64,000 nt of DNA from Candidatus Nomurabacteria bacterium (GTDB lineage Bacteria > Patescibacteriota > Minisyncoccia > Phycocordibacterales > UBA9973), in contig JAPLXO010000011.1 of assembly GCA_026396065.1 (NCBI GenBank), positions 10,748-74,747 on the forward strand. Direction: 5' to 3'. Shown here piece after piece: positions 4,746-28,362 of this stretch. Position 1 is the first letter of the stretch; every line of letters begins with the position of its first letter. The position numbers and the translations under genes were made by a program. Under the pieces are notes generated by a model that saw only the letters and a list, made by a program, of their open reading frames with translations, was not told where the DNA came from and did no database searches.

Positions 4746-4769
4746 CTTTTTTTATGCTAAAATGACTTT

Positions 4770-5439: not shown

Positions 5440-5490
5440 TGCTTGCTGTTGCAAAACAGTGACGGTTCGATTCCGTCTCCTCGGTACATA
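5440..5490 (+). other. tRNA-like 3' fragment (T-arm GACGG-TTCGATT-CCGTC plus 7-nt acceptor-like 3' strand); no complete cloverleaf found
   Basis: GGTTCGATTCC T-loop consensus read directly. The complementary 5' acceptor strand (ccgagga) is absent upstream, so it is not a whole tRNA. Possible att-site remnant. Confidence 0.35.
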
Positions 5491-5786: not shown

Positions 5787-5840
5787 AATAAAAATTGTTA
5801 ACAAACTCAGCGATAGCAGAAAATGTTAACAATTTTTATT
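5787..5840. terminator. Perfect 17-bp inverted repeat (aataaaaattgttaaca / tgttaacaatttttatt) overlapping the stop of the minus-strand PaaX-like gene; likely bidirectional terminator
   Basis: Read directly; arms are exact reverse complements with a 20-nt loop. Confidence 0.55.
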
Positions 5841-6342
5841 TTCCGAATGTTTCAAATAAAACTTTTTTAGTTTCGTCATCCACAAATTGTGTGACGATAA
5901 TCATCATCTCTGTCGTGAGGCCGAGGTCTTTTTTAATATTTATAAATAAGTGTTCGAAAGGGTAGGGAGAAATCCATGCAGAATTTTTCAGACAGACGAA
6001 TCCAGCTTTTTTGAGGAGGTATCGCAAACTCTCGCGCTCGCTTTTGCGAGCTTCAGGAAGATCGAGTAAAATAATTCTCCAAAATCCATCCCAAGAAGAT
6101 GATACGAGAGTGGTATCGCTATCGAGCTTCAAACTGTGCATTTTCTTTTTTCCTTCTTTCGTCAGGCGAGCGTAGTCATTCTGCCCACTAGAAATATGCT
6201 CCACCAGCCCTGCTTCACGTAGATTTTTTAGTGAGCGGGTGAGTGCGTATTTTTCATTTATTGGGCCGTCTACGAGGGAATTGACCGCTACAGCGCTCTT
6301 TTCGCCTAGTATTTTAATGATTTTTTTAGTATGGCTTGACAT
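5836..6342 (-). CDS. PaaX-family-like transcriptional regulator (winged helix), short form
   Basis: 168 aa; SWDGFWRIILLDLPE.RK.ERE.LR..L...GF..L..SAWISPYP resembles the PaaX core (WDG.W....YD.PE...R..LR..L...GF..L...VW.SP). Shorter than canonical PaaX. Confidence 0.45.
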   Translation of the reverse strand: MSSHTKKIIKILGEKSAVAVNSLVDGPINEKYALTRSLKNLREAGLVEHISSGQNDYARLTKEGKKKMHSLKLDSDTTLVSSSWDGFWRIILLDLPEARKSERESLRYLLKKAGFVCLKNSAWISPYPFEHLFINIKKDLGLTTEMMIIVTQFVDDETKKVLFETFGK

Positions 6343-8637: not shown

Positions 8638-8644
8638 AAACTAA

Positions 8645-8676
8645 CAAAAAAAAGCTCAAAAGAGCTTTTTTTTGTT
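8645..8676 (+). terminator. Rho-independent terminator after dnaK
   Basis: aaagctc-aaa-agagcttt plus T8. Confidence 0.7.
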
Positions 8677-8701
8677 TTTAGTAACTGATATAATAAAACC
8701 T

Positions 8702-10978
8702 ATGGAAGATATTGTAATACCTGAAAATAAAGACATGACCTATCTTGGTCAGACTACTTTTCGTAACAAAAATGTTTTATTTGGAATAAAACGCAAAGAT
8801 CGTCGTCAGCACTGTTATTTGCTCGGAAAATCAGGTACTGGTAAATCTGCTCTCATGACAAATATGGTTTTGCAAAACATCATTAATGGTGATGGTGTTT
8901 GTGTTGTCGATCCACACGGAGAACTTGTAGAAAGTATTGTATCAGCTATTCCAGCTCATCGTTTAAAAGATGTTATTTATTTTAATCCTGCTGACACTGA
9001 TTATCATATTGGTTTTAACGTTTTAGAGTTATTAGATCCTCGTTACAAACATCTTGTCGCCTCAGGATTGATGGGAATTTTCACAAAAATTTGGGCGAAT
9101 GCATGGAGTGCTAGAATGGAATACATTTTAAATAATTGTATTTTGGCTTTACTCGATACACCAGGTACTACACTTCTTGGAATTCCTAGAATGCTCGTCG
9201 ACAAAGATTATCGTCAGAAAATAATTACAAATTTGAAAGATCCAGTCATTAAAGCTTTTTGGATTCATGAATATGAAGCTTGGCAAGATAAATTTCGAAA
9301 TGAAGCTATTGCTCCGATTCAAAATAAAGTCGGACAATTTCTTTCTACTTCCATTATTCGTAATGTCGTAGGGCAATCAAAAAGTACAATTGATCTTTTT
9401 CAAGTAATGAATGAAGGAAAGATTTTTTTGGTGAATGTTTCCAAGGGACGTATCGGTGAAGATAACTCTGCACTTCTCGGAGGTATGCTTATTACAAAAA
9501 TTCAGCTCGCTGCAATGGAGCGTGTGCGTATTCCAGAAGAAGAACGTAAAGACTTTTACCTGTATGTCGACGAATTCCAAAATTTCGTAACAGATGCTTT
9601 TGCTAGTATTCTTTCAGAAGCTCGTAAATATCGTTTAAATCTTACTATAGCTCACCAGTACACAGCTCAGCTTGTCACTGCCAATGGTTCCGCTGTGCGT
9701 GATGCTGTATTCGGCAACGTAGGGACTATGATTATTTTCCGTGTAGGTGCTGACGATGCTGAATTCTTAGAAAAAGAATTTGAACCAGAATTCATGGCTA
9801 CAGATATTGTGAACTTGCCAAACTATCGAATTTATTTAAAATTGATGATTGATGGTATTACGAGTAGACCTTTTTCTGCTAAGACACTTGCACCGATGAA
9901 TAAAAACAGTAAGGTAAATACTGAGGAAGAAGTGATAAAGTCTTCAAGAACTCTGTATGGAAGATCGAAAGAAGTCGTTGAATCAGAAATAAATTCTTGG
10001 AGTGGAATGTCTTTGGGAGACATAGTACCTCCAGGTGGCAATGCTGGTGCAGATGTAGAAAAATTCCCTGTAATTTGTTCAAATTGTATGAAAGAAACTA
10101 CCGTGCCATTCAAGCCAGAAGAAGGACGCGCTGTATATTGTAAAGAGTGTATTGCTAAAATGAAGACAGGCGAGTTGAAGCCTACAAAAGGATCAGCACG
10201 TCAAATAAAATACGATGAAGAAACATTTTTCAAACCTCTTGCCGATCTAGGTATTGAATTTACTTCAAAAGAAGCTCCACCAAAAGTAATACCAAAGCCA
10301 TACATGCCACCAGTATCAAAACCAGGAATTTTTGGGACTGTTAAAAAAGTCTTTCAAAATACTGTTGGAGCAAAACCTCCATCTCCAATTTCAAATATAC
10401 CAAAACCAATTTCTCCAATTACTACTACTAATGTTAATGTTCCAGTTCCACCAAAACCTCCTATAAATATTTTTAAACCACCAACTCCTTCTCTTAATAT
10501 TCCAACACCGGTAATACCAACACCTACTCCACCAGTTAAACCTATTATTTCTACTACTCCAATTGAGTCACAAAAACCTCAAACTGTAGTTGAAAAACCA
10601 AAAGAAAATACAGCACTTAAAGATTTGTTAAATAAAGCCTTGGCACCAAAGCCAATTACACCAGTAGTACCACCTATACAGCCAGTTGTTCCAGAAATAA
10701 AAAAAGTTGAACCAGAACCAATTTCTTTAGCTTCTTTAAAAAATCCAACAATTGCAACTCCTATTTCACAAAATAAAGATAGATCTGCGAGTGCTGAAAA
10801 TATGAATAAGTTAAAAGAATTTGTAGCAAAAATTGCAGAACCTCTTAAAGCAGAAGAAATAAAAAAAGAGGAACAAATTCCTACACAACCTCCAGTCACA
10901 CCTGCACCTACTCCGACGATACAAAAAACAACAAAAGAAGTTCCAGAAGATGTATTAAGGAAAATTTTAGAAGAATAA
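8702..10978 (+). CDS. VirD4/TraG/TraD-like (FtsK-HerA superfamily) P-loop ATPase with C-terminal CxxC-CxxC zinc ribbon and ~250-aa Pro/Thr-rich low-complexity tail
   Basis: Walker A LLGKSGTGKS; Walker B FYLYVDEFQNF; EARKYRLNLTIAHQYTAQL resembles the TraG-D_C/VirD4 motif (...RGYGI.L.LI.Q...QL). Zinc ribbon CSNC...x...YCKEC. No N-terminal TM helices. The ORF track starts at a TTG (8672) inside the dnaK terminator, so the first ATG (8702) is preferred. Paralog of 20448-21920. Confidence 0.6.
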   Translation: MEDIVIPENKDMTYLGQTTFRNKNVLFGIKRKDRRQHCYLLGKSGTGKSALMTNMVLQNIINGDGVCVVDPHGELVESIVSAIPAHRLKDVIYFNPADTDYHIGFNVLELLDPRYKHLVASGLMGIFTKIWANAWSARMEYILNNCILALLDTPGTTLLGIPRMLVDKDYRQKIITNLKDPVIKAFWIHEYEAWQDKFRNEAIAPIQNKVGQFLSTSIIRNVVGQSKSTIDLFQVMNEGKIFLVNVSKGRIGEDNSALLGGMLITKIQLAAMERVRIPEEERKDFYLYVDEFQNFVTDAFASILSEARKYRLNLTIAHQYTAQLVTANGSAVRDAVFGNVGTMIIFRVGADDAEFLEKEFEPEFMATDIVNLPNYRIYLKLMIDGITSRPFSAKTLAPMNKNSKVNTEEEVIKSSRTLYGRSKEVVESEINSWSGMSLGDIVPPGGNAGADVEKFPVICSNCMKETTVPFKPEEGRAVYCKECIAKMKTGELKPTKGSARQIKYDEETFFKPLADLGIEFTSKEAPPKVIPKPYMPPVSKPGIFGTVKKVFQNTVGAKPPSPISNIPKPISPITTTNVNVPVPPKPPINIFKPPTPSLNIPTPVIPTPTPPVKPIISTTPIESQKPQTVVEKPKENTALKDLLNKALAPKPITPVVPPIQPVVPEIKKVEPEPISLASLKNPTIATPISQNKDRSASAENMNKLKEFVAKIAEPLKAEEIKKEEQIPTQPPVTPAPTPTIQKTTKEVPEDVLRKILEE

Positions 10979-11021
10979 TAAATTAAAGAATGTCGCGCTA
11001 AAAGGACTTACGCGACCTCAT

Positions 11022-11336
11022 TTGCAAAATCACATGTTTTGGAATAAAAATACAAATATACATACAGAAAGTACAGAAGAATTTTTTGACGACGAAAGTT
11101 TTAAAGAAATAAAGATGACCTTTATTGGTCGCGTGGTTACTATTATTATTGCTTCACTTTCATTGATCGCCGCACTTGCTTGGGAGGAAACACTTCACGA
11201 TTTATTCAGAGAATTTTTCACTAGTAGTGAATCAATACAAGGTAAACTACTTTATGCAATATTGGTGACTCTGCTTACTGTCATTGTTTCTGTTTTCGTC
11301 GGCCGAAGATTCCTTAAAAAAGCACGAAGGAAATAA
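11022..11336 (+). CDS. Small hypothetical membrane protein (two predicted TM helices)
   Basis: 104-aa ORF; hydrophobic stretches IGRVVTIIIASLSLIAALA and LLYAILVTLLTVIVSVFVG; between ATPase and paralog array. Confidence 0.4.
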   Translation: MQNHMFWNKNTNIHTESTEEFFDDESFKEIKMTFIGRVVTIIIASLSLIAALAWEETLHDLFREFFTSSESIQGKLLYAILVTLLTVIVSVFVGRRFLKKARRK

Positions 11337-11380
11337 ATACTTTTGCTGTATCAGTGTACTAGTACGATAGTATAAAAAAT

Positions 11381-13135
11381 ATGAATCCAGAAATTAAAAA
11401 TTGTCAGAACTGTAAAAAAGAATTTACGATAGAAACGGAAGATTTTTCTTTTTATAAAAAAATGAAAGTTCCACCACCGACATTTTGTCCAGAGTGTAGA
11501 ATGCAAAGAAGATTGGCTTGGAGAAATGAGCGTGGACTATATCGTAGAAATAGTGATGTTCCAGGGAAAGAAAACGAACAGATAATTTCTACTTATCCAC
11601 CTACTATAAATGTAAAAGTATACGACAATGATTATTGGTGGAGTGATAATTGGGAACCTACTGATTATGCTATGGAGTATGATTTTTCACGACCTTTTTT
11701 TGAACAATTTCGGGAACTTTTGTCTAAAGTGCCATTAATAAGTTTTGCTGATAGTAAAGGAGTAAATAATCAATATTGTAATTATATTACTGAAGGTAAG
11801 AATTGTTATATGCTTTCTGCTGCATGGAGTTGTGAAGATTGTTTACTTGGAAATAGAAATTCTTTTTGCAAGGAAACTGTTGATTCTTATGTGTGTCATA
11901 AAACGGAATTTTCTTATGGAAATATTTATTGTGGAGAATCATATAAATTATTTTATAGTGAACATTCGTACAATTGTACTGATTCATATTTTCTTTACGA
12001 CTGCCGAAACTGTATTGATTGTTTTATGTGTTATGGTTTGAGAAATAAATCTTACTGTATTGAAAATGTTCAATACACACAAGAAGAATATAGAGAAAAA
12101 ATGAAAGATATAAATTTGGGTAATTATGAAACTGTTGAAAATAATAAAACTTATTTTAATAAATTTAAACAAAATGCAGTTCGTAAGTACGCCAATAATA
12201 CAAAATGTATAAATGTGACGGGAGATAATGTCGAAAATGCAAAAGATGCACAATATTGTTTTGATTTACCAGGAGGAATTGAAAATATTAAATACTGTAA
12301 TTGGGGTACGTATGGATTAAAAGATTCTTATGATACAGGGCCGGGGACAGGTGGTAAATCAGAAATGACCTATGAAGGAGTTAGTATTGGTGTAGCAAAT
12401 GCTAATTGTTCTTTTGGTGCAATTGTTTGGAATTCTAGTAATGTACAATATGCTTTTAATTGTTACTCTACGAATAATTGTTTTGGTGTCGTCAGTTTGA
12501 AAAGTAAATCTTACTGTATTTTAAATAAGCAGTATACCAAAGAAGAATATAATGAATTGCTACCGAAAGTCATTCAACATATGAATGATATGCCTTATGT
12601 AGATAAAAAAGGACGTGTGTATAAATATGGGGAGCTTTTTCCAATAGAACTTTCTCCTTATGCATACAATGGTGCAACGGTACAAGATTTTTTCCCTCTA
12701 GATAAAGCCACTGCAGTAGGAGAGGGTTTTAATTGGCAAGATGAAACGGAGAGGAATTATGAGGTTACTTTACCAGCCTCAAGTATTCCTTTAAATATTG
12801 AAGAAGTTAAAAATGATATACTGTCGCAAACTTTAGGTTGCATAAACGCTTCAGGAGATGTACAGGGTTGCACGAAGGCATTTAGGTTAGTTTCAAAAGA
12901 ATTAGATTTTTATAAAAGATTTAATATTCCTATTCCACATTTTTGTCCAAATTGTAGACACGCGGAGCGTGTCAGTAGACGCAACCCTATGAAACTTTGG
13001 CACAGACAATGCATGTGTGATAAAACAAATCATGGTCATGCAGCTAAGTGTGAAGTTGAATTTGAGACTGCATATGCTCCAGATAGACCAGAGATCGTCT
13101 ATTGTGAAAAGTGTTACCAACAGGAGATTTATTAG
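11381..13135 (+). CDS. Cysteine-rich zinc-ribbon protein, paralog 1 of unrecognised family (584 aa)
   Basis: N-terminal CQNC...FY.K.KVPPPTFCPECR zinc ribbon; two internal copies of C..C.DCF.C..LRN..YCI.N.QY..EEY; C-terminal FY.R.N.P.P.FCP.CRH.ER...NP.KLW.RQC.C...RPEIVYCEKCYQQEIY. Confidence 0.7.
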   Translation: MNPEIKNCQNCKKEFTIETEDFSFYKKMKVPPPTFCPECRMQRRLAWRNERGLYRRNSDVPGKENEQIISTYPPTINVKVYDNDYWWSDNWEPTDYAMEYDFSRPFFEQFRELLSKVPLISFADSKGVNNQYCNYITEGKNCYMLSAAWSCEDCLLGNRNSFCKETVDSYVCHKTEFSYGNIYCGESYKLFYSEHSYNCTDSYFLYDCRNCIDCFMCYGLRNKSYCIENVQYTQEEYREKMKDINLGNYETVENNKTYFNKFKQNAVRKYANNTKCINVTGDNVENAKDAQYCFDLPGGIENIKYCNWGTYGLKDSYDTGPGTGGKSEMTYEGVSIGVANANCSFGAIVWNSSNVQYAFNCYSTNNCFGVVSLKSKSYCILNKQYTKEEYNELLPKVIQHMNDMPYVDKKGRVYKYGELFPIELSPYAYNGATVQDFFPLDKATAVGEGFNWQDETERNYEVTLPASSIPLNIEEVKNDILSQTLGCINASGDVQGCTKAFRLVSKELDFYKRFNIPIPHFCPNCRHAERVSRRNPMKLWHRQCMCDKTNHGHAAKCEVEFETAYAPDRPEIVYCEKCYQQEIY

Positions 13136-13137
13136 TT

Positions 13138-14886
13138 ATGGAATCAAAAACACCAAAATCAGACGTACTTATAGATGAAATCCTTGCAGGGCTTGTTCCA
13201 CATACACGTATATGTAAATGGAAAGGCGAGCATCAGCATTGTGAAGGCAAATTTGAAATTACGAATGAAGATATTTCGTTTCTTAAAATGCTTCGAGTTC
13301 CTGCTCCAAATTTCTGTCCTACTTGTAGAAGAATTAAAAGACAATCTTTTATGGGTTTCGCGCAACTTTTTAAGAGGAAATGTGATGTAGTTGGACACGA
13401 TGAATCTATCATCTCTGTTTTTTCTAAAGAATGCCCTTTCCCAGTTGTTGATTATAAGTATTTTGCTTCTGATGAATTTGATTCTTTTTTATATCGTAAA
13501 AATTATGAAGAGAATACAAGTCCAATGGAACAACTTTTTTCTCTAAGGAAAATTTTTCCAATGCCTTCATTTTTAAATCGTGATTCTTCGAGTATAAATA
13601 GTGATTATTCAAATGGAGGTAGAGATAATAAAAACTGTTATTACACTAGTGGTTGCTATACGGTAGAAAATGCTTGGTATTCAAATATGCTCGTGAAGAG
13701 CAAAGAAATAATGGATTGCCGAACTGTAAAACATTCAGATCATGTATATTCGAGTCTTTATTCAGACCATCTATATAAATCTTATTTTACTTATTTTTCC
13801 AATAGCTGTACAGATAGTATGTTTCTTTTTGATTGTAGAAATTGTATAAACTGTTTTGGTTGTGTAAATTTGCGTAATGCTAAATATTGTATTTGGAATG
13901 AACAATATAGTAAAGAAGATTATGAACAATTTATAAAATCAAATCTACCATTCTCTAGAGATTTTTTAGAAGAAAATAAGCAAAAATTTTGGCAACTTGT
14001 AAAATCACTTCCAATAAATGCTTCTAGAAATATGACTGTAAAAAACAATGTAAATGGTGTGATGAATGTGAATTCGAATAATTTATATGATGTCACAGAA
14101 TCTAGTAAAGCAGAAAATGTACGTCATGCAGATGGCGCTCTTACACATCAAAATTCTATGGATTTACTATACTCGGGCGGATCTAGTTTGCTTTACGGTA
14201 CTATAAATATCGGTTCTCAATCGAGCAACGTTCGATTTTCAGTTTCATGTAAATTTTCTACTAACTCAGAATTTATTTTTAATTCAAATAATCTAGATAA
14301 TTGTTTTATGTGTTTTGGTTTGCAGCATAAATCTTATTGTATTTTAAACAAACAATATAGCCCAGATGAATATTTTAAAATAATAGATGAAATAAAATCT
14401 GACATGATAAAAAGGGGAGAATACGACGACGGACTAAGTTTTGAATTTTCTGCCCAAGCATATAATTTTTCATTAGCCCAGATTTCTTTTCCTCTTACAG
14501 AACAAGAAATAATAAAATTAGGTGGTTATATGGCTGAAGAGCCAGAAAGTAATGCCGGAGATATGAAAATTTTATCAAAAGAAGAAGTGCCACAAACAAT
14601 AGATGAAGTATCAGATGACATTGTAGATTATGCAATTAAATGTGAGGTTACTGCTAGGCCTTTCAGGATTACTCCTTCAGAATTACAATTTTATAGAATA
14701 ATGAAATTACCACTTCCTACTATACATCCGATAGTCAGAATGAGAAAATATTATGAACTGGCACCAATCGGTAAAAGCTACCCTGCTGTTTGTTCTAAAT
14801 GTGGTAAATCATTTCGATCATTATTTGATCCTAAAGACGGTTATAAGCTATACTGTGAAGATTGTTATAAACAAGAAGTATATTAA
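13138..14886 (+). CDS. Cysteine-rich zinc-ribbon protein, paralog 2 (583 aa)
   Basis: Same architecture; starts 2 nt after the paralog 1 stop; ends ...YCEDCYKQEVY. Confidence 0.7.
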   Translation: MESKTPKSDVLIDEILAGLVPHTRICKWKGEHQHCEGKFEITNEDISFLKMLRVPAPNFCPTCRRIKRQSFMGFAQLFKRKCDVVGHDESIISVFSKECPFPVVDYKYFASDEFDSFLYRKNYEENTSPMEQLFSLRKIFPMPSFLNRDSSSINSDYSNGGRDNKNCYYTSGCYTVENAWYSNMLVKSKEIMDCRTVKHSDHVYSSLYSDHLYKSYFTYFSNSCTDSMFLFDCRNCINCFGCVNLRNAKYCIWNEQYSKEDYEQFIKSNLPFSRDFLEENKQKFWQLVKSLPINASRNMTVKNNVNGVMNVNSNNLYDVTESSKAENVRHADGALTHQNSMDLLYSGGSSLLYGTINIGSQSSNVRFSVSCKFSTNSEFIFNSNNLDNCFMCFGLQHKSYCILNKQYSPDEYFKIIDEIKSDMIKRGEYDDGLSFEFSAQAYNFSLAQISFPLTEQEIIKLGGYMAEEPESNAGDMKILSKEEVPQTIDEVSDDIVDYAIKCEVTARPFRITPSELQFYRIMKLPLPTIHPIVRMRKYYELAPIGKSYPAVCSKCGKSFRSLFDPKDGYKLYCEDCYKQEVY

Positions 14887-14888
14887 TT

Positions 14889-14951
14889 ATGGAAACAAAA
14901 AACTGTCAAAATTGTCCCGATTTTTTAAAAATCGAGGATCCACGATTCTAA
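14889..14951 (+). pseudogene. Truncated ancestral N-terminal leader of paralog 3 (METKNCQNCPDFLKIEDPRF*), interrupted by a ~100-nt palindromic insert
   Basis: 20-codon ORF begins like the other paralogs (METKNCQNC). It then runs into the inserted element and a stop. ATGA overlap with the restart codon at 14951. Confidence 0.5.
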
Positions 14952-16684
14952 TGAATTATAATCGGGATAAAAAAGATATGGAACATCAATCAGAAAGTAA
15001 AATATGTCAGAATTGTAAGACTTCGTTTATTATAAAAGAAGAAGATTTTAATTTTTATGAAAAAATCAAAGTTCCTCCACCGACATTTTGCCCGGAGTGT
15101 AGAAACATACAACGTTTTGCTACTAGAAATTCAAAATCTTTATATAAACGTGCTTGTGATGGCTGTAAAAAAGAAGTTATATCACGATTTTCACCGCATA
15201 ATCCAGCAGTTATGTATTGCCGAGATTGTTGGTGGAGTGATAATTGGGACGCACTTTCTTTTGCAAAAGATTACGATTTTTCTAAAACTTTTTTTGAACA
15301 ATTTAAAGAACTTCTTTTCTCTGTACCACATGTATCACTTTTAAATAATAATATGCATGAAAGTGATTACTCAAACATGGAATCAGATGATAAAAGATGC
15401 TATCTAACCTTTGGAGGACATTATAATGAAGATTGTGCTTTTACTGAATATAGTCTTTGGGGACGTGAAGTATATGATTCTTATTGGTCATTAAAATCGG
15501 AACAATGTCATGGATGTTCTCTTGTTGAGCGTTGCTATCGCACTTATGGATCTGAACAATGTTATGACTGTCTCGATACACTTTTTTCTTTTGATTGTAC
15601 AAATTGTTCAAATATTATTGGTTGTATAGGGTTGAGAAATAAATCATATTGTATTTTTAATCAACAGTATTCTAAAGAAGAATTTTTTGAAATTAAAGAA
15701 AATTTAAATATTGGTTCATATAGAGCTCGAAAAGAACTAGAAGAGAAATCAAAAACATTTTGGCTTAGTTTCCCACATAAAGAGAGTTTGATAACTCATT
15801 CAAATGATTGTACTGGAAATAGTATAGTTAATTCAAAAAACTCAAAAAACATTTGGCAGGCAGATAGTGTTGAGGATTCCAAATATAGTTATATCGCAGC
15901 TTGGAATAAAAACTGTTATGACGAAACATCGGCTGGTAATGACGAGCTTTGTTATCTGTGCGCAAATGGTGGTGGTTTATATAATTCTATCGCTATATTA
16001 TATTCTTTTGGTTCAAATGTAGATAAGAAAAAACAAAGTTTTAATTGTGGTTATTCTTATACTGTTCTCAACTGCACTGATTGTTTTGGTTGTGTAGGAA
16101 TTCGTAATAAACAATATTGTATTTTGAACAAACAATATACCAAAGAAGAGTATTTTGAACTTTTAGAAAAAATTAAAAAAAGTATGTTGGAAAATCCTTT
16201 CCAATCACAAAAGACAGGACAAGTATTTAGCTATGGGGATTTCTTTCCATCAGAGCATTCACTTTTTGCTTACAATGAGACAGTAGCACAAGATTTATAT
16301 CCAAAAGATAAAGATTCTGCAGAGGCTCAAGGTTTTGTTTGGCGAGAAGAACCTGAACCACACTACGACTTTAATCATTATCAAATTCCTGATGATATAA
16401 AAGACGTAGATGATTCTATTTTGTCTCAAGTGTTAAAATGTGAAGAAAGTGGTAAGGGTTATAAAATAGCTCGATCTGAGTTAGCATTTTATCAAAAAAT
16501 GCAGATTCCAATACCTCGTATTTCGCCACTTATACGTATTCGAGACCGTGTACGTGCATTGTTACCATTTAAACTTTTTGATAGGCAATGTCAGAAATGT
16601 AATAAGGATATAAAAACTCCTTATTCTCCAGAACGCCCAGAAATTATCTACTGTGAAAAGTGTTACCAGCAGGAAGTATATTAA
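14951..16684 (+). CDS. Cysteine-rich zinc-ribbon protein, paralog 3 (577 aa from restart Met)
   Basis: MNYNRDKKDMEHQSESKICQNCKTSFII...; same family architecture; ends RPEIIYCEKCYQQEVY. Confidence 0.65.
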   Translation: MNYNRDKKDMEHQSESKICQNCKTSFIIKEEDFNFYEKIKVPPPTFCPECRNIQRFATRNSKSLYKRACDGCKKEVISRFSPHNPAVMYCRDCWWSDNWDALSFAKDYDFSKTFFEQFKELLFSVPHVSLLNNNMHESDYSNMESDDKRCYLTFGGHYNEDCAFTEYSLWGREVYDSYWSLKSEQCHGCSLVERCYRTYGSEQCYDCLDTLFSFDCTNCSNIIGCIGLRNKSYCIFNQQYSKEEFFEIKENLNIGSYRARKELEEKSKTFWLSFPHKESLITHSNDCTGNSIVNSKNSKNIWQADSVEDSKYSYIAAWNKNCYDETSAGNDELCYLCANGGGLYNSIAILYSFGSNVDKKKQSFNCGYSYTVLNCTDCFGCVGIRNKQYCILNKQYTKEEYFELLEKIKKSMLENPFQSQKTGQVFSYGDFFPSEHSLFAYNETVAQDLYPKDKDSAEAQGFVWREEPEPHYDFNHYQIPDDIKDVDDSILSQVLKCEESGKGYKIARSELAFYQKMQIPIPRISPLIRIRDRVRALLPFKLFDRQCQKCNKDIKTPYSPERPEIIYCEKCYQQEVY

Positions 16685-16686
16685 TT

Positions 16687-18459
16687 ATGGAAACACGAAA
16701 TTGTCAAAATTGTAAAAAAGATTTCACTATAGAGGTGGAGGATTTTAATTTTTATCAAAAGATAAAAGTTCCACCACCGACGTGGTGCCCAGAGTGTCGA
16801 CTTATTCGTCGTCTTGCTTATCGTGAAGAACGGTCTTTTTATAAAGATGAATGTGATAAATGCGGTCATGAAATAGTAAGTTTATTTGCACCAGAATCTG
16901 ATCTTCCTGTCTTTTGTTCTCCTTGTTGGTGGAGTGATAGTTGGGATGCTACATCTTATGGAAAAGACTACGATTTTTCTCGTCCATTTTTTGAGCAATT
17001 ATATCAATTAATGAAAGTCGTACCAAATCAGGCTACAAATACACGAAATTGTACTGATTGTAAATATTCTCATGGCAATATACGTTGTAAAAATTGTACT
17101 TTTGTTTTTGCTGGTATACAGTCTATTAATTGCTATTATTGTTCAACACCGATTTTCACAAAAGATTCTTTTGATTCAAGCTTTATTATAAATGCTGATC
17201 ATGTATATGAAGGTGTACATATAGGGGGAATATATAATTCAAAATTTATTTATTTTTCTGATGAATGCTTGGACTGTTCTTTTATTTTTAATTGTGTTGG
17301 ATGTTCAGATTGTTTTGGTTGTGTAAATTTAAGAAATCAAAAATATTGTATTTTTAATATTCAATATTCTAAAGAAGAATATAAAAAAGAAATTTTAAAA
17401 TGGGATCTAGGTAGTTATGAAAATTTACAAAAAGCACGAGAACTTTTTATGAAACTTTACCATAAAACACCAAGACGTTTTGCATTAATTTCAAATTCTA
17501 CAAATTGTATTGGTGATGATATTCAAAATACTAAAAATTGTAAAATATGTTTTTCTGCTACTCATGGAGTAGAAAATTCTAAATTTATTTTTCAATGTGG
17601 ATTATTGTTGAAAGATAGTTATGATGTGACACTAGGCGGAGATACTTCTGAGCTTGCATATGAAGTAAATGGTAGCACTCAATCACAAAAAAGTTTTTTT
17701 TGTAGGGGTAGTAATAACTTAAGAGATGTTGAATATTCAGATAATATATACAATGGATCCAATCTTTTTGGTTGCGTAAAATTGAGACATAAAAAATATT
17801 GTATTTTAAATAAACAATATACAAAAGAAGAATATGAAGATTTAATACCAAAAATAAAACAGCATATGATAGATATGCCATATGTTGATAAAAAAGGACG
17901 AGTCTATAAATATGGGGAATTTTTTCCAGTAGAAATAGCTTTATTTGCTTACAATGAAACCTGGGCACATCAATATTTTCCTATTACAAAAGAAAAAGCA
18001 ATAGAACAAGGTTACAATTGGCGTGATCCGATAGAAAGGGATTATAAAATAACTATTAACATTGGGAATTTGCATAATCATATTAAAGATGTGACTGATT
18101 CTATTTTAGATGAAGTGATAGAATGTGAACATAATGGAAAAAACTGTAATCAACAGTGCACTACTGCTTTTAGAATTTTACCAAATGAATTGGGTTTTTA
18201 TAGACAAATGAATTTGGCTTTGCCTAGAATATGCCCAAACTGTCGTCATTATGAAAGATTAAAAAAAACAAATCCACCAAAATTATGGCATGGAAAATGT
18301 ATGTGCGATGGTGTAGAATCAAGTAATAAAGAATATAGAAATACTATTAAGCATTTGCATGGAGAGGAGCCTTGCCAAAATGAATTTGAAACTTCTATAA
18401 GTAGTGAAAGAAAAGAAATAGTTTATTGTGAAAAATGTTATCAGGATGAATTTATATGA
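16687..18459 (+). CDS. Cysteine-rich zinc-ribbon protein, paralog 4 (590 aa)
   Basis: METRNCQNCKKDFTIEVEDFNFYQKIKVPPPTWCPECR...; ends KEIVYCEKCYQDEFI; first ATG is 16687 (the ORF-track start 16660 is an alternative codon). Confidence 0.7.
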   Translation: METRNCQNCKKDFTIEVEDFNFYQKIKVPPPTWCPECRLIRRLAYREERSFYKDECDKCGHEIVSLFAPESDLPVFCSPCWWSDSWDATSYGKDYDFSRPFFEQLYQLMKVVPNQATNTRNCTDCKYSHGNIRCKNCTFVFAGIQSINCYYCSTPIFTKDSFDSSFIINADHVYEGVHIGGIYNSKFIYFSDECLDCSFIFNCVGCSDCFGCVNLRNQKYCIFNIQYSKEEYKKEILKWDLGSYENLQKARELFMKLYHKTPRRFALISNSTNCIGDDIQNTKNCKICFSATHGVENSKFIFQCGLLLKDSYDVTLGGDTSELAYEVNGSTQSQKSFFCRGSNNLRDVEYSDNIYNGSNLFGCVKLRHKKYCILNKQYTKEEYEDLIPKIKQHMIDMPYVDKKGRVYKYGEFFPVEIALFAYNETWAHQYFPITKEKAIEQGYNWRDPIERDYKITINIGNLHNHIKDVTDSILDEVIECEHNGKNCNQQCTTAFRILPNELGFYRQMNLALPRICPNCRHYERLKKTNPPKLWHGKCMCDGVESSNKEYRNTIKHLHGEEPCQNEFETSISSERKEIVYCEKCYQDEFI

Positions 18460-18572
18460 ATAAAAAAACAAAATTAAAAATAGAATCTTTAAAATATTTA
18501 ATTCCAATCTTGTTAAAAACAATTAAATTTCGAATTAAAGTTTGGCGACGTAAAAACTTTTAAATAAGATAT

Positions 18573-20315
18573 ATGGAAACACGAAACTGTCAAAATTGTA
18601 AAAAAGATTTCACTATAGAGGTGGAGGATTTTAATTTTTATCAAAAGATAAAAGTTCCAGCGCCGACTTTTTGCCCAGATTGTAGAACAATACGTAGACT
18701 ATGTTGGAGAAATGAAATGTCTCTTTTTAAGAGAAAATGTGATGCTCCTGGACATGAAGAAATGCTCATTACATGTTTTCCTCCAGAAGAAAAACTCACT
18801 GTATATGATTCTACATCTTGGTGGGGTGATTCTTGGGATGCAATACAATATGGAAAAGAATATGATTTTTCCAAATCATTCTTTGAACAGTGGAGAGATT
18901 TAAGAAATAGTATTCCACTTCAGGCACTTTCAAACATAAAAGCGACTAACAGTGATTATTGTAATGTGGCAGAGGGCAGTAAAGATAGCTATATGTGTTC
19001 GGGTACTTGGAAAATAGAAAGAACTCTTTACTCTAATAGAGTTTCAGAAACAAAAGATTCCTCCGACTTGTATATAGTGTATCGTTCTGAGCTTTGTTAT
19101 GAAGATGTAATATGTTCTGATTGTTACCATTTAATGTACTCTTTAGATTGTAAAAGTTGTGTTGACTCATTTTTTCTCTATGATTGTGTGGGTTGCACAG
19201 ACTGTTTTGGTTGTAGTAATTTACGCAATAAATCATATTGCATGTGGAACGAGCAATTGTCTAGAGAAGAATATTTTCGTCATTTAGCAGAATATAATTT
19301 AAAAAATCATGAGACTATATCGATTTTAAAAAATAAATTTAAAGAAATTTGTTTGCAATCTTTACATCGTTTTTCACTTCAAATAAAATCAGTAAATTCT
19401 ACTGGTGACAATTTAGAAGGTACAAAAAATTGCAAAGTGTGTTTTGATGTTTCTGGAAAAATGGAAGATTTGAAATATGTGCATTGGACAGCTATTAGTG
19501 CAAAAGACGCTTATGATTCTGGCCCTGGTATTGGACAAGTTGAACTTGCATATGAATCCTTTGACACTGGAATAGGTAATTTCCGTAGTCTTTTTACGAG
19601 TGTTGTATATAGTTGTAACGATGTTGAATATTCATTTAATTGTCATGGTTCTTCGAATTTATTTGGTTGTATTGGAATTAGAAATAAAAAATACTGTATT
19701 TTAAATAAAGAATATACAAAAGGGGAATATGAAATATTATTGCCAAAAATTAAAGAGCAAATGATGCAAGTTCCATATATAGATAAAAAAGGAATTAATT
19801 ATAGATACGGTGAATTTTTTCCAGCAGAACTTTCTACTTTTTGTTATAACGAAACACAAGCACAAGATTATTTTCCAATAGATAAGGAATATGCATCTAA
19901 AATGGGATATCGTTGGCGTGATAAAAAGATAAGTGAATATCACATCACTATTGAATCAAAAGATCTTCCAGATTCTCTTGATGACGTTACAGATTCAATC
20001 ACTAATGAAATTATTGGATGTGAAAATAAAGATAAGATGAGTAATTATTGTAGAGGAGCATATAAAATAACTATCGATGAGCTGAATTTATATCGCAAGC
20101 TTGGAGTACCATTACCAAGACTTTGTTTTCTTTGTCGGCATGAAACTAGATTAAAAATGCGTAATCCAATGAAGCTTTGGAATAGACAGTGTATGTGTGA
20201 AAAAGAAAATCATCAACATAGTGGTAAATGTGAAATTACATTTGAAACATCATACGATCCTAATAGACCAGAAATAGTATATTGTGAAAAATGCTATCAA
20301 GCCGAGGTTTATTAG
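18573..20315 (+). CDS. Cysteine-rich zinc-ribbon protein, paralog 5 (580 aa)
   Basis: METRNCQNCKKDFTIEVEDFNFYQKIKVPAPTFCPDCR...; C-terminus NPMKLWNRQCMCEKENHQHSGKCEITFETSYDPNRPEIVYCEKCYQAEVY nearly identical to paralog 1. Confidence 0.7.
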   Translation: METRNCQNCKKDFTIEVEDFNFYQKIKVPAPTFCPDCRTIRRLCWRNEMSLFKRKCDAPGHEEMLITCFPPEEKLTVYDSTSWWGDSWDAIQYGKEYDFSKSFFEQWRDLRNSIPLQALSNIKATNSDYCNVAEGSKDSYMCSGTWKIERTLYSNRVSETKDSSDLYIVYRSELCYEDVICSDCYHLMYSLDCKSCVDSFFLYDCVGCTDCFGCSNLRNKSYCMWNEQLSREEYFRHLAEYNLKNHETISILKNKFKEICLQSLHRFSLQIKSVNSTGDNLEGTKNCKVCFDVSGKMEDLKYVHWTAISAKDAYDSGPGIGQVELAYESFDTGIGNFRSLFTSVVYSCNDVEYSFNCHGSSNLFGCIGIRNKKYCILNKEYTKGEYEILLPKIKEQMMQVPYIDKKGINYRYGEFFPAELSTFCYNETQAQDYFPIDKEYASKMGYRWRDKKISEYHITIESKDLPDSLDDVTDSITNEIIGCENKDKMSNYCRGAYKITIDELNLYRKLGVPLPRLCFLCRHETRLKMRNPMKLWNRQCMCEKENHQHSGKCEITFETSYDPNRPEIVYCEKCYQAEVY

Positions 20316-20325
20316 AATGAAGTCC

Positions 20326-20425
20326 ATGATAAGGGGTTTGGGTTGTATTTCTCCCTCTCCTTGATAAGGAGAGGCCGTCTACAGGTGTCCATCAACTACC
20401 GGTGGACTTTGGGTGAGGTGAATTA
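20326..20425. repeat. Intergenic repeat element B: hairpin ctccctctcctt-gata-aggagagg plus gggtgaggtgaat box
   Basis: Read directly; the same hairpin and box recur at 23776-23816; related G-box at 5755-5780. Confidence 0.65.
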
Positions 20426-20447
20426 TATGCTAAAATAATAATACATT

Positions 20448-21920
20448 ATGGGAAAGCCGAATCGAGTTCAGATAATCAAATATGGTCCACCACCACCAGA
20501 GCTTCCGGTGTTTGGAAAGGTGCCTCCTGAAGAGGTTTCTTTTATTGGACGTACGAATTACGTCGCAGCACTTGAAGAAAAGAAATTTATTTTCGGAATT
20601 AAGCGCGTTGACCGCCGAAGACATTTATATATCATTGGAAAGTCTGGGGTTGGAAAAACAAAGCTTCTAGAATTGATGCTTCGCCAAGATGTGACATATG
20701 GCCACGGTCTTTGTCTTATCGATCCACACGGTGACGTTATCGATGCAATGCTCGATTATATTCCAAAAGAGCGTGTTGAAGACGTTTGTATTATTGACCC
20801 TGCTGATATTGATTTCCCAGCATCTTTCAATCCTTTGGCAAATGTCGACCCAATGTTCAAATTTCAATTGACTCAAGGGTTAATCGAAGTTTTCCAAAAA
20901 CAATTCGGTGCAAACTGGACACCACGTCTCGAGCACGTTTTTCGTTTTACTTGTCTCGCATTACTCGATTATCCGTATGCTACGATGCGCGGAATGATCT
21001 CGATGTTGACAGATAGAAATTATCGTCAGAAAGTCGTGGAATATATTACAGACGACATGGTGAAAAGATTCTTCGCTATCGAATTCGCGGACTGGTCTGA
21101 AAAATTCGATACTGACGCTATTATTCCACTTGTTAATAAACTAGGTCAATTTCTTTCTGATCCCTTGCTTCGTAATATTTTCGGACAGAAGCAAAATAAA
21201 ATAGATATTAGTAAATTGATGAATGAACAAAAAATAATTTTTATTAATTTGTCTAAAGGGCGCCTCGGTGAAGAAAATTCGTCTTTCCTTGGTTCGATGT
21301 TTTTGACTAAAATTAAACAGGCCGGAATGGAGCGCGCTAGTATTGCCGAACGTGACCGTAAAGATTTTTATATTTATGTGGACGAGTTCCAAAACGTAGT
21401 GACACAAACTTTCGAAAACATTTTGTCGGAAGCTCGAAAATACGGTTTGAACCTTACTATGGCTCATCAGTATGTCGGTCAAATTATTCCAAAAGTTCAC
21501 CAAGCTGTACTTGGTAATACAGGTAGTGTCATTTGTTTTCGTGTAGGTGGAGAAGATGCTGTAAAATTGAAACCCGAATTTGAGCCATTATTCGGAGTGA
21601 AAGACATGATCAACCTCGCCGTAGCAGAATTTTATATCAAAATGACGATTGATGGAGAGTCTTACGATCCATTTTCTGCAGAGACACTTCGTGTATTACC
21701 TCCAAATCATCCTTCATATCGACAAGAAATTATAAATGCATCACGTAGAAAATATTCAATTCCAAAAGACGATGCGCAAAAATTGATTCAAGAGGAAGAA
21801 GCTACAATTATTCGAAGTGCAGAAGAAAAAGCTATTATTTCAGGAAAAGGCAAAAATGAAGTTGACGAAAATGAAAAGTCTGCAAAACCAGTCGCTAAAG
21901 AAGCTGAACCTATGATATAA
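20448..21920 (+). CDS. VirD4/TraG/TraD-like (FtsK-HerA superfamily) P-loop ATPase, paralog 2 (490 aa; no zinc ribbon or Pro-rich tail)
   Basis: Walker A IIGKSGVGKT; Walker B FYIYVDEFQNV; EARKYGLNLTMAHQYVGQI; collinear with 8702-10978 over ~450 aa. Confidence 0.6.
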   Translation: MGKPNRVQIIKYGPPPPELPVFGKVPPEEVSFIGRTNYVAALEEKKFIFGIKRVDRRRHLYIIGKSGVGKTKLLELMLRQDVTYGHGLCLIDPHGDVIDAMLDYIPKERVEDVCIIDPADIDFPASFNPLANVDPMFKFQLTQGLIEVFQKQFGANWTPRLEHVFRFTCLALLDYPYATMRGMISMLTDRNYRQKVVEYITDDMVKRFFAIEFADWSEKFDTDAIIPLVNKLGQFLSDPLLRNIFGQKQNKIDISKLMNEQKIIFINLSKGRLGEENSSFLGSMFLTKIKQAGMERASIAERDRKDFYIYVDEFQNVVTQTFENILSEARKYGLNLTMAHQYVGQIIPKVHQAVLGNTGSVICFRVGGEDAVKLKPEFEPLFGVKDMINLAVAEFYIKMTIDGESYDPFSAETLRVLPPNHPSYRQEIINASRRKYSIPKDDAQKLIQEEEATIIRSAEEKAIISGKGKNEVDENEKSAKPVAKEAEPMI

Positions 21921-21967
21921 ATTAAACAACATACTGACAAACTCCAGTATGTAAGGATGTTAAATTT

Positions 21968-22012
21968 ATGAATTCTGAAACAAAAAATTGCCAAAATTGT
22001 CCCGATTTTTAA
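21968..22012 (+). pseudogene. Truncated ancestral N-terminal leader of paralog 6 (MNSETKNCQNCPDF*), interrupted by the same insert as paralog 3
   Basis: Read directly; the same CQNC then cccgattttt... junction as at 14910. Confidence 0.5.
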
Positions 22013-22035
22013 AAAATCGAGGATCCACGATTCTA

Positions 22036-23775
22036 ATGAATTATAATCGGGATAAAAAAGATATGGAACATCAATCAGAAAGTAAAATATGTCAGAATTG
22101 TAAGACTTCGTTTATTATAGAACAAGAAGATTTTAATTTTTATGAAAAGATGAAAGTTCCTGCACCGACATGGTGTCCTGAATGTCGAATGGCACGTAGA
22201 TTCCTATTTATGAATACTTGGAATCTATATAGGCGAAATTGTGAAAAATGTGGGGAAAGTACACTTTCAATGTTTTCAGAAGATAAACCACATAAGGTTT
22301 TTTGTTTACCTTGTTGGTGGTCGGATGATTGGGATGGTACTGAGTATGCTATCAATTACGACCCCTCTCGTTCTTTTTTAGAACAGATGAAAGAGCTGGA
22401 ACTCAGAACACCTTGGATGGCTAATACTATGATGTATACAATGAATGTAAATAGCCCGTATTGTAATGCTACTGGTCCAGTAAAGAATTGCTACATGCTT
22501 TTTTGGGCAGATTATTGTGAAAATTCTTTTTACTCATCTTATTTGAATACTTTAAAAGATTCTATAGATTGTTATCGGGTAGCTCATAGTGAATTGTGCT
22601 ATGAAGGCACTGGTTTGAATAAATGTTACAGAACTTTCTTTTCGGAAGAGTGTGATTCTTGTACCGATACGTGGTTTTCAAGAGCTTGTTCTGGTTTAGT
22701 AAATTGTTTTGGTTGTATAAATTTAAGAAATAAAAATTATTGTATATTCAATGAACAATATTCTCAGGAAGATTATTTTAAAAAAGTAAAAGAATTTGAT
22801 CTAATATCTCATACGTCATTAGAAAAAATAAAAAAAGATGTTTTAGTGTTTTGGAGTAAATATCCAAGGCGATTTTATAACGGTAATGCGTTAAACAAAA
22901 ACGTTAGTGGTGATTATATTTATGAATCTAAAAATGCACAGAATTGTTTTATGGTTTCTGGGGCTGAAGATTGTAAATTTACTCAATTTGTAAGTATTCC
23001 AAAAGCCAAAGATTGTTATGATAATACTGGTTGGGGAGATGGTTCAGAAAGAATTTATGAGTCTACTGTTGTCGGCCTCGGAGCAAGTAATGTAAAATTT
23101 TCTAATGAATGCTGGCCTAATGCAATGAATACAGAATACTCTATCTATGCTATAGGTGGATGTAAGGATATTTTTGGATGTGTCAATTTAAAGAAAAAAC
23201 AATATTGTATTTTAAATAAACAGTATTCAAAGGAAGAATATGAAAAGTTAAAAGAAAAAATTATTAAAGATATGAATATAAATACTTTTATAGACTCAAA
23301 AAATAGAGTTTATAAATATGGTGATTCATTACCTATTGAATTGTCGCCATTTTCTTACAATGAATCAAATGCTGGTAAGTTTTTACCAATTACAAAAGAA
23401 AAAGCTTTAGAGCAAGGTTTCACTTGGTCAGAAGGAAAGGTGAATGAATATAAGATTACAGCCAAGGCGTCTGATTTACCAGATACAATCTCATATACTA
23501 CAGATGAGATACTAAACGACGTGTTTGAATGTGCTTCTTGTCAAAGAGCTTATAAATTTACTCTAGGTGAATTGAATTTAATGAGAAGACTTTCTTTACC
23601 ATTACCACATAAATGTTTTCATTGTCGTCAAGAATTTCGTTTTTCTAGATCTAATCAGGCTAGATTATACGATAGAAATTACATGAAATGCGGAGTAGAT
23701 TTAAAAACTTCTTATAATCCAGATAACACAGAAATAGTTTATTGTGAAAAATGCTATCAGCAGGAAGTATATTAG
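22036..23775 (+). CDS. Cysteine-rich zinc-ribbon protein, paralog 6 (579 aa from restart Met)
   Basis: MNYNRDKKDMEHQSESKICQNCKTSFII...; ends NTEIVYCEKCYQQEVY; the first 28 residues are encoded by nucleotides identical to paralog 3. Confidence 0.65.
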   Translation: MNYNRDKKDMEHQSESKICQNCKTSFIIEQEDFNFYEKMKVPAPTWCPECRMARRFLFMNTWNLYRRNCEKCGESTLSMFSEDKPHKVFCLPCWWSDDWDGTEYAINYDPSRSFLEQMKELELRTPWMANTMMYTMNVNSPYCNATGPVKNCYMLFWADYCENSFYSSYLNTLKDSIDCYRVAHSELCYEGTGLNKCYRTFFSEECDSCTDTWFSRACSGLVNCFGCINLRNKNYCIFNEQYSQEDYFKKVKEFDLISHTSLEKIKKDVLVFWSKYPRRFYNGNALNKNVSGDYIYESKNAQNCFMVSGAEDCKFTQFVSIPKAKDCYDNTGWGDGSERIYESTVVGLGASNVKFSNECWPNAMNTEYSIYAIGGCKDIFGCVNLKKKQYCILNKQYSKEEYEKLKEKIIKDMNINTFIDSKNRVYKYGDSLPIELSPFSYNESNAGKFLPITKEKALEQGFTWSEGKVNEYKITAKASDLPDTISYTTDEILNDVFECASCQRAYKFTLGELNLMRRLSLPLPHKCFHCRQEFRFSRSNQARLYDRNYMKCGVDLKTSYNPDNTEIVYCEKCYQQEVY

Positions 23776-23816
23776 CTCCCTCTCCTTAATAAGGAGAGGG
23801 TTGGGGTGAGGTGAAT
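23776..23816. repeat. Intergenic repeat element C: hairpin ctccctctcctt-aata-aggagagg plus gggttggggtgaggtgaat
   Basis: Immediately follows the paralog 6 stop codon; copy of element B. Confidence 0.65.
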
Positions 23817-23855
23817 TTTTGATTTTTAGATGATTTTTTGCTAATATAACACTCT

Positions 23856-24509: not shown

Positions 24510-24544
24510 TGTATTTCTTTTTAGACTAGTGTTATAATAAAGGT

Positions 24545-28315: not shown

Positions 28316-28362
28316 CAGATATAGGTGCTTGACACCTTTTTCCAAAGTGCTAGACTTTTTGT

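Follow-up and report, generated by a model that had tools for sequence, protein, structure and literature searches.

Type IV coupling proteins (T4CPs), such as VirD4, TraD, TrwB and PcfC, share a VirD4/TrwB-type P-loop ATPase domain, and ATPases of the HerA/DndH(DptH)/VirB4 clade have known partner genes, among them NurA, Sir2 and Dnd. According to passages of a survey of Patescibacteria (Microb Genom 2025, PMC12102498), T4SS (secretion systems of type IV) occur widely in these bacteria, and VirD4-like homologues number 5,713 in 2,918 genomes, which makes roughly two T4CP homologues for each genome; almost all are remote from virB4, only 148 being near it, and the exaptation of T4CP homologues is left open. 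Here we describe a 64-kb stretch of the genome of a Candidatus Nomurabacteria bacterium (GCA_026396065.1, contig JAPLXO010000011.1, positions 10,748 to 74,747; hereafter the window), in which two ATPases of this kind, ATPase A and ATPase B, are encoded together with an array of large Cys-rich proteins (CYS; paralogs P1 to P6) between the chaperone genes dnaK and dnaJ. These ATPases very probably belong to the orphan VirD4-like T4CP homologues of the survey, the searched passages of which contain neither the A/B split and the loss of the membrane domain nor the bracketed Cys-rich arrays and the link to dnaK/dnaJ. Literature searches yielded no published description of the module. The association of the ATPases with the Cys-rich family is genuine and apparently undescribed, and it is built on a known kind of ATPase.

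Both ATPases match the Pfam families TrwB_AAD_bind, T4SS-DNA_transf, TraG-D_C and DUF87 above the Pfam cut-offs, which bears out the VirD4/HerA-type assignment made in an earlier sequence-only reading of the window, and they are 45% identical to each other over 414 aa. NCBIfam models of T4CPs all remain far below their cut-offs (SXT_TraD 53 bits, cut-off 366; conju_CD1115 40-53 bits, cut-off 250; TraD 28-38 bits, cut-offs 521-648). As read from the sequences, the Walker A (GKSGxGKS/T) and Walker B (YVDEFQN) motifs are intact in A and B, Walker A beginning at about aa 45-65 behind a polar N-terminus. No N-terminal hydrophobic segment was found in either protein: by a crude hydrophobicity measure, which is not a dedicated transmembrane (TM) predictor, the best 19-aa window within the first 120 aa scores 0.63-0.68, compared with 0.95 for a canonical T4CP-like open reading frame (ORF) of locus L044 (see below). 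ATPase A is composed of a P-loop domain (aa ~30-420), a CxxC-x17-CxxC treble-clef zinc finger (about aa 453-488, nt ~10061-10165) and a Pro-rich tail of ~270 aa. The finger exceeds the curated cut-offs of TIGR04272 and PF23477 (Table 1) and is thus a bona fide copy of the zf_Tbcl_2 domain; small Methanosarcina proteins made of the CxxC-x17-CxxC domain bind zinc (PMC12704099). It is kept in 17 of the 19 complete A-type relatives listed, and the C-terminal peptide of ATPase A, EVPEDVLRKILE, is kept in the Nomurabacteria-like clade. The closest folds of the two ATPases are those of DNA motors, namely, DndH-C, TrwB, HerA, TdpA and FtsK, and their best homologues in cultured organisms are plasmid genes; one of these, a T4CP encoded in a PrgI/VirB4/relaxase cluster of an Embleya plasmid, shows 29% identity (E-value = 3e-52). 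It is well supported that A and B are ancient paralogous ring-type P-loop ATPases derived from T4CPs or from the VirB4/HerA clade, and equally well supported that neither retains a membrane anchor or a connection to T4SS genes.

To place the locus among its relatives, 80 loci were fetched via a Cys-rich profile with 10-kb flanks and their ORFs were labelled with the window proteins (loci are referred to by L numbers). The co-occurrence of ATPases and Cys-rich genes anticipated by the sequence-only reading is found in 31 of the 80 loci, where an ATPase lies within 10 kb of Cys-rich genes, and in 19 loci one A-type and one B-type ATPase bracket or flank the array. The ATPases of related loci fall into two clean orthologous groups. 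A-type proteins have an ATPase domain 69-86% identical to that of the window's A and a long Pro-rich tail, while B-type proteins (68-94% identity) are ~490 aa long and always end in EP[MLI][IV]. The 19 loci and the window contain exactly one A and one B each, never A+A or B+B. Across the same loci, identity amounts to 84-92% for B, 80-89% for dnaK, 45-68% for dnaJ and ~42-50% for the Cys-rich proteins, and the 120 best database matches to ATPase B are 83-93% identical; ATPase B is as conserved as DnaK. Unlike T4CPs, A and B lack an N-terminal TM domain and VirB4, mating-pair formation (MPF) or relaxase neighbours, carry a zinc finger in A, and form an obligate-looking pair that is chromosomal, vertically inherited and conserved to the degree of Hsp70. 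Unlike HerA systems, they come without NurA, Sir2, Dnd or other known partner genes, and their partners are instead an uncharacterised zinc/solenoid family and Hsp70 genes.

The gene order dnaK-A-(CYS)n-B-dnaJ is seen in L003, L013, L016, L053 and L069, and also in L081, with partial versions in L005, L010, L025, L026, L028, L032, L033 and L049. In all 13 of 13 B-dnaJ pairs, dnaJ follows B after a gap of 7-81 nt, and dnaK is followed by A in eight pairs. Most relatives have B directly before dnaJ, where the window has P6 in between. In four loci a Cys-rich gene shares 17-32 nt with the 3' end of grpE, and in relatives another often lies 29-43 nt behind dnaJ. The 529-kb contig of L081 displays long-range synteny with the window (rpoA-L17-L13-S9-grpE-(PaaX-like, minus strand)-dnaK-A-CYS-...-B-dnaJ-...-arginase), and there A and B enclose just a single Cys-rich gene and DnaJ is full-length. 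A comparison with syntenic relatives had been suggested as a check for absence of the block; many Paceibacteria share the arrangement, and a few relatives have dnaK adjoining dnaJ (L024, L030). Brackets of the form A/(CYS)n/B, in either order, occur with no dnaK or dnaJ nearby in L006, L015 (Kaiserbacteria), L020, L039, L051 and L068 (Staskawiczbacteria). Because the brackets persist in such distant loci, the durable unit is the ATPase pair with the Cys-rich array, and nesting within the chaperone cluster is a trait of the Nomurabacteria-like clade, in which the window falls. Vertical inheritance of a module specific to the Paceibacteria lineage, in which a slowly evolving A+B motor is combined with a fast and expandable Cys-rich set, is well supported.

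The sequence-only reading had taken the block for an island or accessory module. This explanation fails because the composition is native (the GC content of the block, 0.28-0.37, equals that found elsewhere in the window, which is GC-poor at ~0.32 and shows no shift across 8.7-23.8 kb), mobility genes are absent and the order is conserved by descent in many genomes, with B as conserved as DnaK. In keeping with what that reading had reported, the 64-kb window was found to encode neither an integrase nor a relaxase, nor VirB4 or any further T4SS component. ARAGORN found no tRNA there and Rfam gave nothing significant. Annotation of neighbours extended to the 10 families that recur most often around the 80 loci; it revealed no integrase, relaxase, VirB4 or MPF gene. 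Next to lone Cys-rich genes, these 10 families are mostly housekeeping genes, namely those for an AI-2E transporter, an ABC transporter, CysRS, arginase, L9, RecR and the CtpA protease, besides a PaaX-like regulator and two families without a Pfam match. A phage origin of the Cys-rich family was likewise rejected, as tblastn found no member among 50,697 phage records and a scan of IMG/VR returned one marginal fragment. Annotators should not read these ATPase genes as signs of conjugation or of a mobile island.

Few bacteria are as abundant, or as poorly understood, as the ultrasmall Paceibacteria, in which the majority of lineage-specific genes still lack a functional assignment. The module provides a concrete context for the roughly two orphan VirD4-like genes per patescibacterial genome: they represent two ancient orthologous groups that have lost the anchor, evolve as slowly as Hsp70 and are tied to a very large, uncharacterised zinc/solenoid family and, in one major clade, to Hsp70 genes. 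The question of coupling-protein exaptation thereby becomes directly testable. As a separate observation, L032 (JAMPXW010000002.1, labelled Burkholderiales; ATPase B 89% identical) and many 'Candidatus Saccharibacteria' loci carry the Paceibacteria-type module, and their taxonomic labels are probably wrong.

The Cys-rich genes had been proposed to form one paralogous family, and this was confirmed: the six proteins of the block (570-590 aa) are 32-46% identical to each other, and a seventh copy, P7, was added from outside the block. With a profile built from the six window paralogs, more than 7,900 database proteins were found; the named ones are all "hypothetical" and come from Patescibacteria (Nomurabacteria, Paceibacterota, Minisyncoccia). 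No Pfam domain was detected in the retrieved proteins and no relative of the family was found in the PDB. An exhaustive profile search gave 4,912 clusters (50% identity) at E <= 1e-3 and 2,182 at E <= 1e-30, the matches being nearly all 550-600 aa long and full-length. According to an AlphaFold2 (AF2) model of P1, confident overall (Table 1; pTM 0.85, with two weaker repeat regions at pLDDT 58-75), and profile comparisons, the proteins have a pseudo-symmetric layout of zinc module, two predicted beta-solenoids, middle domain and zinc module. Homology was detected between the zinc modules of the two ends, the N-terminal one covering aa 1-118 (hhalign E-value = 9e-24), and between repeat regions 1 and 2 (E-value = 3e-38). 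Twenty Cys columns are at least 80% conserved, comprising CxxC tetrads at both ends and the repeat caps; C544, C557, C575 and C578 reach 97-98%, and the median protein of the family contains 34 Cys. The zinc modules and solenoid caps are conserved, and the repeat cores of the solenoids are the most variable parts. The C-termini (...YCEKCYQQEVY) resemble zf_Tbcl_2, with most copies below the family cut-offs: P2 scores above the cut-off of 27 bits (Table 1), P3, P4 and P6 score 18-24 bits, and P1 and P5 give no match at the default threshold. Unlike zf_Tbcl_2 proteins, the zinc modules of CYS are part of a ~580-aa architecture for which no relative has been described. Structurally, the CYS model comes closest to curlin (CsgA) and to antifreeze beta-solenoids of insects or plants, at 6-10% identity and moderate model confidence, so the likeness is at the level of fold only. 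In contrast to these solenoids, CYS proteins have zinc-ribbon ends and, as read from the sequences, no signal peptide at the N-terminus, and amyloid formation, secretion or ice binding is without support. Their overall isoelectric point (pI) is 5.6-6.4, with ~8 in the C-terminal module and ~5 in the solenoid part. No enzymatic effector domain was detected in CYS proteins.

For every paralog of the window, some protein of another genome is a nearer relative (50-79% identity) than its own neighbours, and the subfamilies are therefore old. A given position does not hold a fixed orthologue: in L081 the lone Cys-rich gene reaches only ~42% identity to any of the window's paralogs, though the ATPase B of that locus is 86% identical. 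We considered whether a single slowly evolving "core" Cys-rich orthologue follows ATPase A and rejected this, as the subfamily behind A varies between genomes. Copy number ranges from one (L081) to at least 12 in tandem (L066). Within the window, the 5' ends of P3 and P6 together with ~190 nt upstream (14892-15104 and 21977-22189) are 93% identical, the proteins being otherwise ~40% identical. The common piece, in which a small inverted repeat (CCCGAT...ATCGGG) occurs and the start is partly duplicated (a METKNCQNC remnant, then MEHQSESKICQNCK), looks like a recent gene conversion or small insertion that created a new start.

What might the module do? Translocation, remodelling or loading of the Cys-rich proteins by the ATPases is plausible. 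We tentatively favour, as a possible explanation, a cytoplasmic A/B ring motor whose cargo or clients, handled jointly with Hsp70, would be the Cys-rich proteins. In such a scheme, A and B would form a hexameric motor, possibly mixed, which would recognise the conserved zinc modules at either end of the Cys-rich proteins, ATPase A itself having a finger of the same kind. The conserved peptides that end the flexible tails of the ATPases could serve as docking sites, much as the C-terminal tail of TraD docks TraM in conjugation. The motor would unfold, thread or hand over the aggregation-prone solenoid proteins, which DnaK, DnaJ and GrpE would keep soluble; DnaK is known to suppress premature aggregation of curlin-type proteins. 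The variable solenoid cores might carry the specificity of each paralog, and the proteins might end up either assembled in the cytoplasm or passed to an envelope conduit, e.g. a patescibacterial T4SS encoded elsewhere. A stronger version, which we regard as doubtful, holds that A and B constitute a new kind of cytoplasmic protein-handling ring motor, exapted from coupling proteins and acting as a dedicated, somewhat ClpB-like partner of Hsp70, with the multi-zinc beta-solenoid family, large and lineage-defining, as clients or adaptors of organism-specific function, e.g. in interaction of an episymbiont with its host. If true, it would amount to a previously unrecognised core machine of Paceibacteria.

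Several considerations weigh against a client-handling motor. In 40 of the 80 CYS loci the fetched flanks contain neither ATPase nor chaperone genes, and further copies are dispersed elsewhere (P7; L085). In the window, dnaK is followed by a terminator-like hairpin and the conserved genes have promoter-like motifs of their own. A physical or functional interaction among the ATPases, CYS and Hsp70 is putative, and the synteny among loci may in part reflect shared ancestry, the dnaK/dnaJ loci being fairly close relatives. Furthermore, motors of the FtsK/HerA/VirD4 type are best known as DNA translocases, and stable zinc modules are awkward substrates for threading.

Alternatively, A and B might still act as coupling proteins and deliver Cys-rich effectors or adhesins to a patescibacterial T4SS or another channel, with DnaK and DnaJ keeping the Cys-rich proteins unfolded and disulfides bracing the solenoids once outside the cell. 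Such export overlaps with the client-handling motor and differs from it by committing to secretion. The ATPases are homologous to genuine T4CPs, the Embleya plasmid protein being one, and a conserved motor accompanied by fast-evolving, copy-variable paralogs is the usual pattern of a machine with its effectors. The lack of a signal peptide would fit a Sec-independent route, the Cys-rich solenoids resemble the disulfide-braced antifreeze beta-helix 1m8n, and the survey passages cited above (PMC12102498) describe T4SS as widespread and most T4CP homologues as distant from virB4. However, neither ATPase has the membrane-anchor domain of T4CPs, and no MPF genes were found within the 64 kb or among the annotated recurrent neighbours of the 80 loci. 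The conserved Cys residues form CxxC tetrads of the sort usually seen in intracellular zinc ribbons, and the extreme C-terminus of CYS appears to be a folded zinc finger of acidic or neutral character rather than a disordered basic T4SS signal. The very high conservation of B also suggests a housekeeping role. We consider export unlikely.

Still less likely is a nucleic-acid machine, in which A and B would be a DNA or RNA translocase akin to HerA, FtsK, DndH or TrwB and the zinc-ribbon proteins DNA-binding adaptors, regulators or acidic solenoids mimicking DNA by which it is targeted or gated. Such a machine might serve the uptake, processing or repair of DNA or the organisation of the nucleoid, and its linkage to chaperone genes would then be incidental. 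The closest folds being DNA motors speaks for this explanation, as do the treble-clef and zinc-ribbon modules, which often bind nucleic acids and in CYS C-termini are more basic than the solenoids, and beta-helical pentapeptide-repeat proteins are known to mimic DNA. Yet, among the annotated neighbour families, no nuclease, methylase, NurA or other DNA-processing partner recurs beside the module, the CYS proteins are acidic overall, and the repeated interleaving with grpE, dnaK and dnaJ would be left unexplained.

It is also improbable that the genes have no joint function and that shared ancestry and tandem duplication, in small genomes that seldom rearrange, account for their adjacency. The long-range synteny of the window with L081, from rpoA-L17-L13-S9-grpE through dnaJ to arginase, the many CYS copies located beside unrelated genes and the apparently separate promoters would all be consistent with mere adjacency. 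On the other hand, the A/(CYS)n/B bracket persists in both orders where the surroundings differ and dnaK and dnaJ are absent, and CYS genes have entered three chaperone junctions (grpE/dnaK, dnaK/dnaJ and after dnaJ), with translational overlaps.

The sequence-only reading had matched the block to no described defence system, and indeed none matches it as a whole. PADLOC assigned the ATPases to mad8 (E-values = 4e-15 and 8e-14) and weakly to HerA and DndH, found no match for the Cys-rich and DUF5654 proteins and no complete gene set of mads, Dnd/Dpt or Nezha, so that identity with a defence system was rejected on the grounds of lone ATPase matches only. A conflict or defence role, with a HerA/DndH/mad8-like ATPase pair serving diversifying sensors or effectors against phages or competitors, is highly improbable: these matches and the rapid divergence and variable copy number of CYS genes favour it, but there are no other mads, Dnd or Sir2/NurA partner genes and no enzymatic effector domain in CYS, and position and order are conserved inside a core operon with B evolving as slowly as DnaK, whereas defence genes are usually patchy and fast-evolving.

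The relation of the module to the chaperone genes may be assessed by comparison with the canonical hrcA-grpE-dnaK-dnaJ operon. The window shares with it grpE, dnaK and dnaJ on the same strand and in the usual order; their coordinates and the ~15-kb gap between dnaK and the short dnaJ, in which all genes lie on the plus strand, were as the sequence-only reading had described. Unlike the canonical operon, the window has no hrcA among its annotated ORFs and no CIRCE element with up to three mismatches, contains a gene for a PaaX_M regulator, separates dnaK from dnaJ and encodes a DnaJ without the CXXCXGXG zinc finger, which retains the J domain, the G/F region and part of the C-terminal domain. 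In relatives, DnaJ is either a short form of ~220 aa (L003, L034, L053) or a full form of ~365 aa (L081 and others). The PaaX_M-type gene is present between grpE and dnaK in the window, in at least 10 related loci and in L081, and its product is a candidate regulator of the chaperone genes that may replace HrcA/CIRCE control.

An extended -10 motif, TGnTAnnnT, precedes the ATG by 15-20 nt at grpE (4755-4763), ATPase A (8686-8694), ATPase B (20428-20436), dnaJ (23839-23847), the gene at 24545 (24530-24538) and an Rhs gene (28348-28356). The sequence TGCTAAAAT forms this motif both at grpE, 15 nt before the ATG, and at ATPase B. No Shine-Dalgarno motif is evident between the -10 motifs and the start codons of these six genes, which suggests separate, near-leaderless units and, more generally, frequent leaderless or near-leaderless transcripts in this organism. 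Co-transcription of the module with dnaK and heat-shock control, both proposed earlier, appear doubtful because of the terminator-like hairpin of dnaK and the own promoter motifs of A, B and dnaJ, although these are consensus matches only and read-through is possible. A side observation concerns the B/dnaJ junction of L069 (15027-15053), L013 and L016, where the final codons of ATPase B, CCT ATG ATA TAA (...PMI-stop), with the next base spell TGATATAAT, so that an extended -10 motif lies immediately before dnaJ; the constraints on protein and promoter may coincide at this point.

The features of the window are collected in Table 1. The gene content of the block (A, a small membrane protein, five paralogs, B and a sixth paralog) is largely as first described. 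The small protein with two TM segments had been counted as part of the module; it belongs to DUF5654, has no homologue in the 80 related loci even at E <= 10, and is a passenger specific to the window genome, outside the conserved module. Its possible role as a membrane anchor for the ATPases was rejected because the gene is unique to this genome. Of the tight packing claimed earlier, the 2-nt gaps are real at P1/P2 and P3/P4, with the same spacing from P2 to a remnant ATG at 14889, while no ATGA overlap was found within the block with the likely ATG starts; those of P3 and P6 are 14978 and 22063 (MEHQSESKICQNCK), downstream of the ORF starts. Cys-rich genes (~12.2 kb) and ATPase genes (~3.7 kb) make up ~20% of the window. 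The rest is ordinary core genome, with S11, S4, rpoA, L17, L13 and S9 upstream and PBP2, arginase, tRNA synthetases, dnaB, recR, scpAB, ftsW and murG downstream.

Table 1. Positions of genes and sequence elements in the 64-kb window
Feature	Position	Strand	Remarks
grpE	4770-5378	+	labelled by phmmer; GrpE Pfam match in syntenic locus L081
PaaX_M/winged-helix-like regulator	5836-6342	-	PF20803, E 5e-19; between grpE and dnaK
dnaK (Hsp70)	6742-8637	+	from translation; 80-89% identity to dnaK of related loci
Intrinsic-terminator-like hairpin	8643-8676		A-run, GCTC/GAGC stem, T-run; directly 3' of dnaK
Extended -10 promoter-like motif TGATATAAT	8686-8694	+	7 nt upstream of ATPase A start codon
ATPase A	8702-10978	+	VirD4/TrwB/HerA-type P-loop; PF10412 49.5 bits, PF23477 48.9 bits (cut-off 27), TIGR04272 52.7 bits (cut-off 36)
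DUF5654 small membrane protein	11022-11336	+	PF18898, E 5e-15
Cys-rich paralog P1	11381-13135	+	AF2 model, pLDDT 83.7
Cys-rich paralog P2	13138-14886	+	most divergent copy, 24 Cys; PF23477 28.1 bits at C-terminus
Cys-rich paralog P3	14978-16684	+	5' end and ~190 nt upstream 93% identical to those of P6
Cys-rich paralog P4	16687-18459	+	
Cys-rich paralog P5	18573-20315	+	72-79% identical orthologues in L005, L069, L053, L032
Palindromic repeat, copy 1	20350-20425		CCCTCTCCTT/AAGGAGAGG hairpin and GGGTGAGGTGAA box, extra hairpin inserted
ATPase B	20448-21920	+	short paralog of A; no zinc finger, no membrane anchor; C-terminal EP[MLI][IV]
Cys-rich paralog P6	22063-23775	+	between ATPase B and dnaJ
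Palindromic repeat, copy 2	23776-23816		followed by extended -10 TGCTAATAT at 23839-23847
Short DnaJ, 217 aa	23856-24509	+	PF00226 and PF01556 only
Cys-rich paralog P7	55934-57691	+	seventh copy, dispersed among cell-wall genes

The hairpin/G-box repeats noticed in the sequence-only reading are real, and the hairpin CTCTCCTT-N-ATAAGGAGAGG with the GGGTGAGGTGAA box occurs exactly twice in the window (20355, 23780), with 0 occurrences expected by chance. The hairpin has the form CCCTCTCCTT-loop-AAGGAGAGGG, with the arms ACCTCACCCC and GGGGTGAGGTGAA on its flanks. Further copies are present in L053 (1330-1385 and 5415-5445), L022 (1750-1785) and L041 (12615-12633), one L053 copy lying in frame within the Pro-rich tail of ATPase A, a situation reminiscent of Rickettsia palindromic elements. 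Sequence comparison thus identifies a small dispersed palindromic element of this lineage, and because it is dispersed, found in relatives and once inside a coding region, its proposed role as a boundary of the block was rejected.

Two further observations lie outside the module. On the minus strand, GACGGAATCGAACCGTC (5461-5477) resembles a tRNA T-arm, was confirmed by neither ARAGORN nor Rfam, and may be a remnant or a chance match. Downstream of dnaJ, the plus-strand gene at 28363-34614 encodes a 2083-aa protein with SpvB, TcdB_toxin_midN, FG-GAP and RHS-repeat domains, a candidate Rhs/Tc-type polymorphic toxin in a tiny genome.

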